From: an uncultured Chloroflexia bacterium
Lineage (GTDB): Bacteria; Chloroflexota; Limnocylindria; Limnocylindrales; CSP1-4
Assembly (NCBI GenBank): GCA_963813535.1
Contig: CAWEZH010000003.1
Location: 640,001 to 704,000, forward strand
Direction: 5' to 3'
Length of the DNA stretch: 64,000 nt
The notes beneath the pieces are model-generated. The model was not told the DNA's origin and ran no database searches. It was given only the letters and a program-made list of their open reading frames with translations. Both the position numbers and the translations under genes were made by a program. Numbering within the stretch: the first letter of the stretch is position 1; each line of letters opens with the position of its first letter. Shown piece after piece: positions 16,544 to 20,545 of this stretch.

Positions 16544-17677
16544 TCAGGTGGTGGACGGCGTCGGGGCCGTGTCAAGGCCGCCGAGCAACTCGCCCCAGTG
16601 GCCGCGGCGCATCACGAGCAGAAGCACCCACCCGACCGGGATCGGGACGAACCACTGGGCGATCCGGAACAGCATCACCGCGGCAGTGAGCTGCTCGGTC
16701 AACCCCGATCCGGCCACGCTTGACAGGATGCCGATGTAGGCGAATTCGGTGACGCCCACGCCGCCCGGCGTGATGGGCACCAGCGACACCATCCCGACGA
16801 CCGCCATCGCTGCCAGCACGGCCGACGGCGGGAGCACATCTGGGCCGACCCCAACGCACCAGAGGGCGACCACGAGCACGACGAACCAGGCGAGTTTGGC
16901 GGCCACGGCTGCGGCGAACCCACGCAGGCCGTGCTGCGTGAGGATGGCCTTCGAGCGCTCTCGAAGGTCAAGGATGCCCTCGACGATGCCCGTTGGCGGC
17001 GTCTTCCGGAAGAGCTTCCAGATGCGCTGGGCCATCCGGTCGAGCCAACCGCCCAGCTTCCGGGCTAGGCTCTCCGAGCGCACGATGGAGGACAGCAGGA
17101 CCGCCGCGGCGACGAGCACGATGAGGCCGATCAGCGCGAGCAGGAACGCACGCGTCTCGGCCGGGTGACCGGTGACGAGCAAACCGCCCGTGGCGATCAG
17201 CGGCAGGGCAAAGTAGGAGAACGTCTCGAAGAGGGCCGCGAGGACGATCCCGGCGCTCGCGATAGGGGTGGGGATCGACCACTGGCGGTACAGGAGGAGC
17301 CGCGTGGCGATGTCGGTCGGCCCGGGCACGGTGCTGACAACCGCGCGCGCAGCTAGGTCCGATCCGACCGCGTGCGGCCAGGACAGCCCGGGCACGAGGA
17401 CCCGGGTGGGGCCGGCGTTGGCGACGTAGGCGACCGCGCTGGCAGCGCCGAGAAGCGCGATCTGCCCGGGGGTCAGCGCCGCGAGCGCGGCCCGAACCAT
17501 GTCGTAGTCAATCAGGCGTGGCAGCACGACCCCGAACACGAACAGGAAGACCCCGACGAGCACGAGCACGCGCCCCGCCATCGCCCGACGGCTCGGGGCT
17601 GGCTGGGTGGCCGCTCCGCCGGGCGTGCTCGCGCTCGTCTCGGCGGATCCAGCGTGCGGCATGGCGTGAATAACCAT
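16544..17677 (-). CDS. LPG-synthase TM (flippase-like, UPF0104) membrane protein
   Basis: Multi-TM; PITPGGVGVTE and AAVMLFR motifs; start uncertain. Confidence 0.8.
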   Translation of the reverse strand: MVIHAMPHAGSAETSASTPGGAATQPAPSRRAMAGRVLVLVGVFLFVFGVVLPRLIDYDMVRAALAALTPGQIALLGAASAVAYVANAGPTRVLVPGLSWPHAVGSDLAARAVVSTVPGPTDIATRLLLYRQWSIPTPIASAGIVLAALFETFSYFALPLIATGGLLVTGHPAETRAFLLALIGLIVLVAAAVLLSSIVRSESLARKLGGWLDRMAQRIWKLFRKTPPTGIVEGILDLRERSKAILTQHGLRGFAAAVAAKLAWFVVLVVALWCVGVGPDVLPPSAVLAAMAVVGMVSLVPITPGGVGVTEFAYIGILSSVAGSGLTEQLTAAVMLFRIAQWFVPIPVGWVLLLVMRRGHWGELLGGLDTAPTPSTT

Positions 17678-17749
17678 AGCGCGCGCAGATCTGCCCGCCC
17701 TCGTGGCACATCGGCGCCGGTCGGTGGATCGTGCTCGGACTCTTCAGCT

Positions 17750-18622
17750 CTAGAACGAGGCCAGGAACCCGTCGACCACGGCCGCGGTCTCGGCCGGCTG
17801 CTCGAGTTGTGGAAGATCCCCGGCGTGCGCGATCGTGATCCGTTCCAGATGGCCATTCGCCGTGACCAGCGCCTCCGCGGCCGCGGGGTCGGTAAAGCGG
17901 GGATGGTCCCCGAAGACGAGGAGCGTCGGGTTCGCCAGCCGCTTGTAGGCGCCCTCCGCCCGGGGGTCATCGAGCAACCCGGAGACGAACGCCAGCGGAG
18001 CTCGAAAGGCGCCTGGCTGCTGGCAGGTCCGCCAGCAATACCGCTCGTACTCCCGCGGGACCTGTTCCGGATCCGCAAAGATCTGCCGGAGGAACCAGCG
18101 GATGACCTGGCGCCGAGCAAGCACCTCGAACAGCAAGCGACCGATCCCCGTCAGGCGAAGGAACCGGTAGATGATCCGGGAGATTCTGCCGGCACTGCCC
18201 TTGAATCGGCCGAATCCGGTCGGACTGATGAGGACGATCCGGCCGAAGCGCTGCGGATCCTCCGCGGCGGAGGCCGCGACATACTGCCCCGGCAGCGAGA
18301 GCGCGACGACATCCATGGAGATCTCGCCCGGCTGCAGGGCGGCCGACCGGATGGCCTCGAGTTGGTCGCCGTAGAGTGCCCACCCATAGGGCGCATCGGG
18401 CCGATCCGATGTGCCGAATCCCAGCCAGTCGACCAGCACGACTCGTCGGTGCTCGGCCAGCCGTGACGCCAGCGGAGCGAGCTCGATCCCGGAACCGGCT
18501 GCGTTGAAGCTGTGCAGGAGCAGGACCGTCCGACCCTCGCCCAGCCGGTAGGCGGCAACCCGCCCGGCGGCAGTCTCCAGATCAAACGGGACCCCCGCTA
18601 CGGGCGAGGGCAAGGTGATCAT
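17750..18622 (-). CDS. Alpha/beta-fold hydrolase, catalytic His apparently absent
   Basis: LLLHSFNAAGS, DWLGFGTSDRP, VVALSLPG, AGDLPQLEQP; start overlaps the regulator stop. Confidence 0.85.
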   Translation of the reverse strand: MITLPSPVAGVPFDLETAAGRVAAYRLGEGRTVLLLHSFNAAGSGIELAPLASRLAEHRRVVLVDWLGFGTSDRPDAPYGWALYGDQLEAIRSAALQPGEISMDVVALSLPGQYVAASAAEDPQRFGRIVLISPTGFGRFKGSAGRISRIIYRFLRLTGIGRLLFEVLARRQVIRWFLRQIFADPEQVPREYERYCWRTCQQPGAFRAPLAFVSGLLDDPRAEGAYKRLANPTLLVFGDHPRFTDPAAAEALVTANGHLERITIAHAGDLPQLEQPAETAAVVDGFLASF

Positions 18623-19473
18623 CACGCCCGTGCCCTAAGCGCTTCGATCAGCTCGCCAAGCCCTCGCGGATCCGCGACCCAGCCGTCCGCACCGAGATCG
18701 AGTGCCACTCGTTCGTCCGGAACCGCGTTTCCGCCTACCAGGCGCGGAACCGACGGCCGTTCACGACGCGCGGCGGCCAGGAGGCGTCCGGCTGCGGGAC
18801 GACGCTCGATATCGACCACACTCACGACGACCGCTGCGAGAGGTCCCGCATCTCGCATCGCAGCGGCGAGTGACACGGTCGGCGTGTCGGGGCCCAGGTT
18901 GAGTACTTCATATCCGGCATCGGTCAGGATGTCGGCGAGCATCGCGACCCCCAGCCCATGACGCTCTCCGGGCGGCATCGCGACGATGACGACGCCTTTC
19001 TTGCGGCCTGGGTGCACGAACCGAGGGCCGAGACGTCCGATCAGCGTCGTGGCCACACTGCTCGCGAGATGCTCTTGGTCGACGGAGATGCCATCCGATG
19101 CCCACAGCGCCCCGATGGCGTGCAGCGACGGCGCGAGGACGCGGACGTAGATCTCGCCTGGCTCGAGGCCCGAGGCCATTGCAGCCTCGACGACCTGCCA
19201 GCTACCGGCGACGTCGCCGCTGAGCATCCGCGCCCGCAGCCGCTCCTGCCAGGTCGATACCCGGGGGTGGCTACCCCCGCGGCGGCGGCGACCACGGGCG
19301 GGCGTTGTCGTGGCGCCCGCGAGATCGGCAGGGTCGACCATCCACGTACCGCCGATCTTCCGGGCCGGCAGGATGCCCAGCCGGACGCGACGGTAGATCG
19401 TCATGTAGTGGACGCCCAGACGATCGGCCGCCTCGAGCAGGCTGAGATGGCCGGAAGGGTCCGACGGGGTCAA
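18622..19473 (-). CDS. CarH/LitR-like adenosylcobalamin photoreceptor regulator with excisionase-type HTH
   Basis: LSLLEAADRLGVHYMTIYRRVR HTH; W-x9-EH (WASDGISVDQEH); GERHGLG B12 motif; probable TTG start overlapping the upstream TGA. Confidence 0.85.
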   Translation of the reverse strand: MTPSDPSGHLSLLEAADRLGVHYMTIYRRVRLGILPARKIGGTWMVDPADLAGATTTPARGRRRRGGSHPRVSTWQERLRARMLSGDVAGSWQVVEAAMASGLEPGEIYVRVLAPSLHAIGALWASDGISVDQEHLASSVATTLIGRLGPRFVHPGRKKGVVIVAMPPGERHGLGVAMLADILTDAGYEVLNLGPDTPTVSLAAAMRDAGPLAAVVVSVVDIERRPAAGRLLAAARRERPSVPRLVGGNAVPDERVALDLGADGWVADPRGLGELIEALRARA

Positions 19474-19787
19474 CGCGCCAGATTCCCCGCGAACACCTGC
19501 CATGCGAGGGTCGACTTCGCGATCAAGCTGAGCATGAAGGAGGCCCTCTCGCCGAAGACGTTCGACTTCCACCGACCGACCCGCCGGTACTGGAGCCACA
19601 GGTTAAGCGCGAAGATGTCGAACGTCGCCGTCACCGGCAGCGCGTGAAGGCGGTGGCGAGGGCGAGGAAGGCGACCCCCTGACGGCATGGACAAGGCCGA
19701 GCCCGATATCGCAGTGCCGCAATGACGCGGCCCGAGACGCAGGGAGTTCGACCGTCGGCGTGGAATGAGTCGGTCGCTGGCGATCAC
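19470..19787 (-). pseudogene. Heliorhodopsin remnant with internal deletion and frameshifts
   Basis: C-terminus FALNLWLQYRRVGRW...GERASFMLSLIAKSTLAWQVFAG with the retinal Lys; helix A pieces SLRHCDIGLGLVHAV / GVAFLALATAFT / LPVTATF in shifted frames. Confidence 0.85.
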
Positions 19788-19807
19788 GAGGGAGTCCTGT
19801 ATGGGAC

Positions 19808-19842
19808 GAGGGTGGGGCCTGCAGGAGGCAGGCCACACCCTC
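19808..19842 (-). terminator. GC-rich stem-loop after fasciclin (terminator or mRNA stabiliser)
   Basis: GAGGGTG-GGCCTGC...GCAGGCC-CACCCTC with a 5-nt loop; no U-tract. Confidence 0.5.
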
Positions 19843-19866
19843 GAGTGGGAGCGATGGTACTGAGGA

Positions 19867-20448
19867 TCAGTCGGTCGGCGGCAAGATGACCTTGTCGATG
19901 ACGTGGATGACGCCATTCGACGCCATCACGTCGGGAGTCACGACCTTCGCACTGTCGTTCAGATAGACGACGCCGTCTTTGACGGCGATAGCGATCGGCG
20001 AGCCCTCGACCGAATCGGCTGAGGTGAGCCCGACGATCTGATCGGATGACACGGCCCCCGAGACGACGTGGTACAGCAGCACCTGCTTAAGCGCCTCCTT
20101 GTCGGCGAGCAGCCCCTCGAGCGTGCCGGCTGGGAGTGCCGCAAAGGCCTCGTCAGTGGGCGCAAGCACGGTGTAGGGACCCTCGCCCTGGAGCGTCTCC
20201 ACGAGCCCGGCGGCCTTGACGGCGGTCAGGAGGGTGGAAAAGGAGCCCGCCTCGGTGGCAGTCTGGACGATGTCCTTGGCCATGGTGGCTGCCGAAGCCG
20301 AAGGCGCGGCGCTTGGGGATGCGGCGGACGTGGCTGCCGGGCTCGGCGTCGACGCGTCGGTGGTCGACGCGCTCGGCGATGCAGCGGCGGAGCAGCCCGC
20401 GATCGCGATCGCGAGCGCTGGCACGAGGAGGGTGATGGATCGTTTCAT
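19867..20448 (-). CDS. Fasciclin (FAS1) domain lipoprotein
   Basis: Lipobox [39 protein letters not shown]. Confidence 0.95.
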
Positions 20449-20516
20449 GACTGATGACTTCCCTTCGAGCTCTTGGCTTGGGTGTGATGTCGGGTCTGAC
20501 TGACTCGACCTCAGGT

Positions 20517-20545
20517 ATTATTTAGCACTAAATCTGCGTTGTCAA
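20517..20545 (-). promoter_or_regulatory. Sigma70-type promoter with overlapping palindromic operator
   Basis: TTGACA-17-AATAAT; ATTTAG-CA-CTAAAT at 20520-20533 overlaps spacer and -10. Confidence 0.65.

Follow-up and report, generated by a model that had tools for sequence, protein, structure and literature searches.

Background

CarH and LitR are bacterial repressors that use adenosylcobalamin (AdoB12) as a light-sensitive cofactor, and the motif W-x9-EH is the mark of AdoB12 photoreceptors of this kind. Here we investigate a locus that resembles them in a 64,000-nucleotide stretch of DNA, hereafter the window, from an uncultured Chloroflexia bacterium (assembly GCA_963813535.1, contig CAWEZH010000003.1, positions 640,001 to 704,000). 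The locus contains genes for a fasciclin lipoprotein, a heliorhodopsin (HeR), a CarH/LitR-like regulator, an alpha/beta-hydrolase-fold protein and a flippase-like membrane protein. We read it as a CarH/LitR light switch with an unusual cargo, seen here in a copy whose rhodopsin is gone.

Two kinds of described system are close to this locus. In the LitR-LitS system of Streptomyces, a B12 regulator controls an extracytoplasmic function (ECF) sigma factor, according to the available part of the report (PMC11519972). HeR genes have been described in operons with partners, among them glutamine synthetase, photolyase and an ABC transporter (Cho et al. 2024, PMC11109279). The accessible part of that article counts a MerR family regulator among the HeR neighbours in 4 of 448, an alpha/beta hydrolase in 21 and an SDR oxidoreductase in 13, and neither its text nor its searchable supplements, as far as available, mention B12, cobalamin or fasciclin. 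Bulzu et al. 2021 (PMC8612252) use none of the terms cobalamin, B12, MerR and fasciclin in their main text, and the accessible part of a preprint on the HeR xanthophyll antenna (10.1101/2025.11.27.691015) contains no fasciclin, B12 or operon. An earlier note on this DNA had singled out the locus as its best candidate for an undescribed system, and this holds within the journals covered, which are not all journals: the literature searched yielded no paper that describes the module.

Results and discussion

A B12-type regulator encoded with its putative targets

We consider it likely that the locus is an autoregulated light-response operon under a CarH/LitR-like AdoB12 photoreceptor-repressor. 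Five co-oriented frames, identified through open reading frame calls and Pfam, lie on the minus strand between 20545 and 16544, as the earlier note had proposed; they would be co-transcribed, perhaps with the exception of the last. The regulator, of 283 aa (18622..19473), stands between the HeR pseudogene (19470..19802) and the alpha/beta-hydrolase-fold gene (17750..18625, a Pfam assignment). It is joined to both by the stop/start overlaps that had been described: the TGA of the HeR remnant (19472-19470) overlaps the TTG start of the regulator (19473-19471) as TTGA, and the TGA of the regulator (18624-18622) overlaps the GTG start of the hydrolase-fold gene (18625-18623) as GTGA.

In the regulator a linker rich in Arg connects a winged helix-turn-helix (HTH) to a four-helix bundle, which is followed by a Rossmann B12-binding domain, and Pfam finds HTH_17 (6.2e-08), B12-binding_2 and B12-binding (1.6e-12) in it. 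The cap motif W-x9-EH over the upper, adenosyl ligand is present as W124-x9-E134-H135; it aligns with the same motif in 8jbs and is invariant in 7/7 orthologues and in 40/40 family members. The lower axial His lies in the (D/E)xHxxG motif of the Rossmann domain, here the ExHxxG sequence E170-R-H172-G-L-G175, and H172 is likewise invariant in the 7/7 and 40/40 aligned sequences. The best sequence matches in the PDB are domains of B12 photoreceptors, photocobilins among them: 8jbs and 8j2w/x/y come first, followed by CarH (5c8a/5c8d) and LitR (3whp), with E from 4e-15 to 1e-12 and a match that spans only residues ~58-277.

In the AF2 model of the regulator (pLDDT 89.6) the winged HTH has a predicted strand-helix-helix-hairpin-helix fold and the Arg-rich linker is disordered; the four-helix bundle and the Rossmann domain are also seen. 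Foldseek pairs this model at probability 1.00 with photocobilin, full-length CarH and a Chloracidobacterium MerR-family B12 domain (5c8d/5c8f, 8j2w, 8jbs). Superposition on the CarH B12-binding domains gives a TM (target) of ~0.8 at 2.7-3.2 A, and on full-length CarH 291-297 columns align with an rmsd of 8-12 A. The NCBIfam excisionase domain scores 27.8 bits on the regulator, slightly below its cut-off of 28.8. By signature and predicted fold we infer a CarH-like B12 photoreceptor that is an atypical member of its family; B12 binding, a light response and repression would follow from family membership and from the genes that surround it.

Selection is visible in the ratio of nonsynonymous to synonymous substitution rates (dN/dS). 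For the regulator, fasciclin and hydrolase-fold genes this ratio is 0.14-0.28 between the window lineage and its HeR-intact kin, and 0.18-0.27 among the kin themselves, which indicates that all three genes remain under purifying selection.

The promoter and a single putative operator

A sigma70-type promoter precedes the fasciclin gene at 20517..20545 on the minus strand, with a -35 TTGACA (20545-20540), a 17-nt spacer and a -10 AATAAT (20522-20517). It agrees with the consensus at 11/12 positions, and a consensus scan of 5.5 kb found 2 such sites against 0.4 expected from shuffles. The palindrome that had been noticed over this promoter is also there: the putative operator, a 12-bp near-palindrome TTTAGTGCTAAA at 20521..20532 of the same strand, reaches from the end of the spacer into the first two bases of the -10 box.

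All 8 aligned loci of the genus keep the -35 box and the spacer motif, which are also conserved across related loci; the eight genus upstream regions share TTGACA, then have 9 variable bases and then an invariant TTTAGTGCTAAATA. At ≤2 mismatches TTTAGTGCTAAA has its sole site in the window here (0.06 expected), and the longer TTTAGTGCTAAATA has its sole site in the 3.28-Mb genome. A wider regulon was rejected because the TTTAGTGCTAAATA search of the genome gave no second operator at ≤2 mismatches; the regulon thus appears, from the sequence, to be one promoter.

How far is this site conserved? A scan with a regulator profile over one genome per species gave 308 relatives, from which the best 80 loci were kept. 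These belong to metagenome-assembled genomes (MAGs) of Chloroflexota, several of them labelled Limnocylindrales (57-99% regulator identity), and of Acidimicrobiia (46-58%). In a quick maximum-likelihood tree of 81 regulators (the 80 loci and the window), the regulators of the HeR modules all group in a single clade of 65 rows (SH-aLRT 98), and the 16 others fall outside it. The 12-mer, at ≤1 mismatch, lies between the -35 and the -10 ahead of fasciclin or HeR in 58/64 loci of this clade, where regulator identity falls from 99% to ~53%. The Acidimicrobiia form of the operator, TTTAGTACTAAA, is a perfect palindrome.

Within the genus the exact operator motif is found in 23/81 genomes, once in each except for two sites in G072, and the reversed motif used as a control matches in 1/81. 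The two sites in G072 correspond to two modules. Module-type HeR genes of the genus are always 120-1250 nt downstream of an operator site where the contig allows. This pattern looks like that expected for the operator of an autoregulated regulon of a single operon. Some genomes have two full fasciclin-HeR-regulator modules, ~35 kb apart in opposite orientation on one contig (L040 and L045; G072:C11).

In the 5' leader of the fasciclin gene (20455-20505, minus strand) a stretch GTCGAGTCA...CCCGACA is kept among loci of the genus. The fold of this leader is not unusual (z = -0.88) and it has no Rfam match. An Rfam scan of the leader and operon gave nothing above threshold; the best score was a glycine riboswitch, 23.9 bits against a cut-off of 32, inside the hydrolase-fold gene on the opposite strand.

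The heliorhodopsin gene is a pseudogene

The HeR frame (19470..19802) matches only the end of PF18761: its last 50 residues align in frame with positions 193-242 of 242 (4e-19). The lesions were read from three-frame translation and from a DNA alignment with full-length kin, namely L057 and L095, which are intact, and L063, which has one frame break as assembled. In place of an ATG start there is an ATA (19802-19800). The N-terminal piece has a 1-nt deletion and a 2-nt insertion, and its frame is broken. An internal, in-frame deletion of 474 nt has removed codons 60-217, roughly helices 2-6, with its junction at 19623|19622 in a short TTC repeat. The C-terminal 50 codons are kept, including the helix-7 Schiff-base Lys (IAKS), and end in the TTGA overlap. 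The window copy is therefore not the full seven-helix opsin of PF18761 or NF038020, and it is the only HeR match in the 93%-complete genome. In the kin the intact HeR genes encode 263-286 aa, and the HeR of L047 scores 309 bits against a cut-off of 100.

The 474-nt deletion is real and not an assembly slip, because an identical deletion is present in the nearest relative (G024/L031, with a regulator 99% identical) and because a 631-nt contig from an unrelated public run spans the junction at ~95% identity. The deletion in L033 differs from that of the window. Over the C-terminal 50 codons, dN/dS is 0.21-0.33 between the remnant and intact genes and 0-0.10 between intact genes; with only 50 codons these ratios are noisy, and they indicate that the remnant is under relaxed selection.

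A 4-nt stop/start overlap of the upstream frame, be it HeR or remnant, with the regulator is present in 36/80 loci. In L031, L032, L033, L041, L056 and L060 a short frame still ends in this overlap, and these six are all of the loci in the overlap-bearing Chloroflexota subclade in which HeR is truncated or gone. Its persistence in every one of them suggests that the dead HeR frame has probably kept its 3' end for translational coupling to the regulator.

Repeated loss of heliorhodopsin

HeR states at the 80 loci were assigned by tblastn and open reading frame checks. An intact HeR lies upstream of the regulator in 46/80 loci, and in 4/80 it is full-length with a frame break as assembled. A remnant is present in 6/80 (7 with the window), fasciclin is followed directly by the regulator without HeR in 6/80, 2/80 are cut by contig ends, and the remaining context, in 16/80, is of other kinds. 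Six genomes of the genus have an intact HeR directly upstream of the regulator. The intact HeR that the earlier note had proposed to look for in related genomes was thus found there at the corresponding position, with the same promoter and operator ahead of it.

The module extends to a second phylum. Eight loci of the module clade form an Acidimicrobiia subclade, where fasciclin, intact HeR and regulator occur together in L079, L083, L085, L088, L089 and L090; of HeR, L091 has only a remnant, and L084 is truncated where its contig ends. Two FAS1 domains are found by Pfam in each of the four Acidimicrobiia fasciclins scanned (L079, L083, L085 and L090). In five loci (L050, L053, L054, L055 and L077) the promoter is followed by HeR and regulator without fasciclin.

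On the tree, 11 changes between the HeR-bearing and HeR-lost states are needed, and well-supported branches make no fewer than 6 of these unavoidable. The tree thus indicates that HeR has been lost repeatedly, 6-11 times independently, while the regulator and usually the fasciclin stayed. By the same evidence HeR is a dispensable cargo of the operon.

The 11 annotated HeR-less regulators of the out-group have other neighbours. Six are beside a DNA photolyase gene (L097, L099, L101, L106, L107 and L109), and four are beside an ECF sigma or anti-sigma gene (L099, L106, L107 and L109). This photolyase and sigma context supports, independently of the module, a light role for the family. As an observation on these loci, the HeR-less Acidimicrobiia L099 (5895-6538), L106, L107 and L109 have two tandem ATTAGTGCTAAA sites, 26-34 nt apart, after the regulator gene. 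In L099 they lie ahead of the gene for the ECF sigma factor. Genes for an anti-sigma factor, an acyltransferase and a DNA photolyase are close by, as in a LitR-LitS-like light regulon.

Other associations of HeR with B12 domains were also seen. A second type of HeR, 40-46% identical to the module type, occurs at L019/L113 (G016:C2, ~2150699-2152734), divergent from a canonical MerR_1 plus B12-binding regulator at a distance of ~370 nt; this pairing looks independent of the module. At L116 (G056:C5, 2357-4904) an anti-sigma gene (RskA_C), a B12-binding protein without HTH (236 aa) and a second-type HeR share one orientation. A general link between second-type HeR and B12 regulators was rejected, as a B12-domain neighbour is present in only 2/11 such loci (G016 and G056). 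An NAD(P)-binding NmrA-like protein is encoded beside or inside the module in L079 (2518-4089), L107 (1213-2682), and L048 and L062 (~5886-6275), fused to DUF2867 in the Acidimicrobiia L079 and L107; it may be a further light-regulated cargo.

Proposed mechanism and alternatives

In the dark, the AdoB12-loaded regulator would bind the near-palindrome TTTAGTGCTAAA as a dimer or higher oligomer. As this site overlies the spacer and the -10 box, binding would block RNA polymerase at an otherwise near-consensus and strong promoter. In the light, the Co-C bond would break, the regulator would leave the DNA and the operon would be transcribed, giving fasciclin, HeR where it is intact, the regulator and the hydrolase-fold protein; autoregulation would then reset the switch. 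The ancestral operon would have been fasciclin lipoprotein, HeR and regulator, with the addition, in the subclade of the window, of a hydrolase-fold protein that lacks the catalytic His. At present the switch would be left with only fasciclin, the regulator's own gene and the hydrolase-fold protein to drive, and perhaps the flippase-like gene as well. The claim of a B12 light switch over HeR has been strengthened in two of its parts, the CarH-type signature of the regulator and the same promoter and operator before intact HeR genes in the kin; its third part, the response to light, would follow from these.

Several observations weigh against this reading. The TransRegCarH equivalog of NCBIfam (NF052513) scores 71.4 bits on the regulator against a cut-off of 400, over residues 56-272 only; the regulator has no Pfam MerR match and its DNA-binding domain has no sequence alignment to CarH. 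The operator is missing at ≤1 mismatch from 6/64 loci of the clade, five of which are rearranged or begin where a contig ends or close to that point; L070 is not cut and still has no site. The CarH operator consists of 11-bp direct repeats and the operator predicted here is a single palindrome, so the oligomeric state of the regulator on DNA may differ from that of CarH. The HeR transcripts of a different actinobacterium increased in darkness, according to the accessible part of PMC8591293, and light induction of HeR is thus no general rule. Two runs labelled metatranscriptomic cDNA contain contigs ~90-99% alike over fasciclin and the HeR remnant; RNA is only guessed for both runs, none of the runs listed having RNA on record, and neither transcripts nor their starts or levels can be read from contigs.

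Could the regulator sense cobalamin supply or redox state rather than light, tuning an operon for a surface protein or for the membrane to the availability of B12, in the way of B12-binding domains that are not photoreceptors? Taken alone, the B12-binding domain matches methionine synthase and corrinoid proteins too; the genome yielded neither a photolyase nor carotenoid genes nor a functional rhodopsin, and a soil organism may get little light. Such a sensor is nevertheless improbable, given a photoreceptor cap that does not vary in any of the 40 family members, closest structures in Foldseek that are all light sensors, and family neighbours that include rhodopsin and photolyase. The space between the -35 and the -10 is also the classic position of a MerR-type activator, which would remodel the promoter from that site with no repressor involved. 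The operator does lie between both hexamers, and the HTH is of the MerR/excisionase-like group, in which the relative L083 passes the Pfam MerR cut-off (29.3 vs 28.2 bits). Yet MerR-activated promoters have over-long spacers of 19-20 nt, whereas this one has the optimal 17 nt between hexamers near consensus, the site overlaps the -10 box, and the B12 relatives CarH and LitR are repressors; we give the activator no better a chance than the cobalamin sensor.

Or is the whole locus a decaying relic, whose remaining genes lost their function with HeR? The pseudogene itself, the loss of most of the flippase-like gene from the nearest relative G024 and the frame-broken regulators of several kin, such as G020/L086, would fit such decay. 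It is still the least probable of the three and, in our judgement, very improbable: the fasciclin, regulator and hydrolase-fold genes all have their full length and a dN/dS not above that of HeR-intact kin, fasciclin-regulator pairs without HeR occur in 6 further loci, and many of the frame breaks are in long-read MAGs with several broken genes per locus (L094), which suggests assembly error. Each of these three explanations is less likely than a light-response operon under an AdoB12 photoreceptor-repressor.

Fasciclin, hydrolase-fold and flippase-like genes

The fasciclin (FAS1) lipoprotein, of 193 aa (19867..20448, minus strand), has a signal peptide with a lipobox-like AGC (assigned by eye), an Ala/Ser/Pro-rich low-complexity linker and one FAS1 domain, which matches PF02469 over the whole domain (1.2e-41, profile 2-123 of 123). 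Its dN/dS against the kin is 0.18-0.28. The PDB matches are generic FAS1 proteins, with R. sphaeroides Fdp (1w7d) at 4.4e-37 and CupS at 4.8e-27; the match to the algal protein AstaP (PDB 8C18), at E 9.7e-15, is weaker, and an AstaP-like identity was rejected on this ground.

A more speculative role can be proposed for this protein. As the presumed constant light-induced cargo at the cell surface, it might serve outside the cytoplasm as a carrier, picking up environmental retinal or xanthophylls and loading them onto HeR within one and the same membrane, and perhaps shield the cell alone where HeR is absent. We think this rather unlikely, though a little less so than the cobalamin sensor. It fits with carotenoid synthesis not being found in most of the genus, with the adjacency of fasciclin and HeR in two phyla and with the retention of fasciclin after HeR loss. 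AstaP, a carotenoid-binding FAS1 protein, is a precedent in the part of PMC10147662 available, where a cyanobacterial AstaP homologue is reported to have bound no carotenoids, and HeRs have been proposed to use exogenous xanthophylls (preprint 10.1101/2025.11.27.691015, accessible part).

The alpha/beta-hydrolase-fold protein, of 291 aa, keeps the nucleophile Ser (ALSLPG). An Asp (AGDLPQLEQP) aligns with the catalytic His, in GH, of PDB 6i8w and 5egn, so that the Ser-Asp-His triad is incomplete. Because Asp replaces this His in 20/20 orthologous sequences, the protein is probably no classical hydrolase; its role may be to bind a ligand or to act as a scaffold, without catalysis. The dN/dS of its gene is 0.19-0.22. 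Full-length orthologues are confined to one subclade, in 19/80 loci (L031-L071) whose regulators are at least 81% identical except in L071, where the orthologue is divergent and lies upstream.

After a gap of 72 nt comes the gene for the LPG_synthase_TM/flippase-like membrane protein of 377 aa (16544..17677, minus strand; Pfam PF03706, 6.6e-19). It scores 39.2 bits on NCBIfam TIGR00374 against a cut-off of 43.2, and 42.9 bits on bifunc_MprF against 600, where only the transmembrane region matches (PF03706); at 377 aa there is no synthase domain, and it is not an MprF-type flippase/synthase. A stem-loop after the gene (z = -2.3) has no U tract and was rejected as a terminator. The gene is missing from 79/80 related loci, and in L031 there is a 50-residue remnant. 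This distribution marks it as a local neighbour and not a member of the module, and the operon of the earlier note loses its last gene. Envelope and lipid genes as a common theme also fail to hold, as the cargo varies among loci (fasciclin only, HeR only, or photolyase and ECF sigma) and the hydrolase-fold gene belongs to one subclade.

Compared with L022 (G024), the closest relative, the neighbourhood is rearranged (13462-15633 and 21231-22040 of the window were compared). In G024 the homologue of the window frame 21231-22040 adjoins a glycogen-debranching-like gene, and most of the flippase-like gene is gone.

Light-related and cofactor genes in the genome

Carotenoid genes had been reported as absent from the vicinity, and this extends to the genome: the 93%-complete genome of the window (G000) has no match to the phytoene synthase family. 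The same genome has no match to DNA photolyase (PF00875), and the B12 switch is the only light-related module found in it. Across the genus the phytoene synthase family is present in 4/81 genomes and in none of the HeR-bearing G005, G010, G018, G020, G021 and G023. The retinal-forming dioxygenase family PF15461 gave no match, which is uninformative as the control genomes were silent too. Cofactor genes are present in the form of a PduO-type adenosyltransferase, for the upper ligand, and CobS.

Comparison with known systems

The function of HeR is still debated, and a B12 photoreceptor that apparently times HeR offers a simple regulatory handle on it, of one promoter, one 12-bp operator and one regulator. 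The module would widen the known cargo of CarH/LitR-type regulators beyond carotenoid genes. To this the window adds a decayed state, a count of independent losses, a hydrolase-fold protein without its His and the scarcity of carotenoid synthesis across the genus. HeR appears expendable while the switch and fasciclin persist under selection, and this points to a core output in fasciclin instead of the rhodopsin. Promoter, operator and regulator form a compact set that could also be put to use in high-GC monoderm bacteria, as an expression switch for green light.

The regulator is like CarH and class I LitR (T. thermophilus CarH 5C8D/5C8E/5C8F; LitR 3WHP) in its predicted winged HTH, its four-helix bundle with W-x9-EH and its Rossmann B12 domain. 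The locus is also like theirs in that the putative operator overlaps the promoter and the regulator gene lies among the genes that it would control. It differs in a DNA-binding domain that scores as HTH_17 or excisionase-like and not as MerR, in a cargo of fasciclin lipoprotein and HeR instead of carotenoid genes, and in one 12-bp palindrome where CarH has direct repeats.

With LitR-LitS, as far as the available part of that report describes it, the likeness lies in the HeR-less out-group, whose regulators adjoin ECF sigma, anti-sigma and photolyase genes and have tandem operator-like sites before a sigma gene. The clade of the window differs from it in having no sigma factor, and its regulator appears to act directly, at a single site in the genome. 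As in the HeR operons of the accessible part of PMC11109279, HeR is encoded with functionally linked neighbours. Unlike those operons, the locus has a B12-photoreceptor-type regulator and HeR seems to be a regulated cargo, not a proven binding partner; in the window that HeR is dead. The fasciclin resembles AstaP of green algae (PDB 8C18, PMC10147662, accessible part), a protein tied to light stress, in being a secreted protein with a single FAS1 domain. It is closer to ordinary FAS1 proteins than to AstaP.

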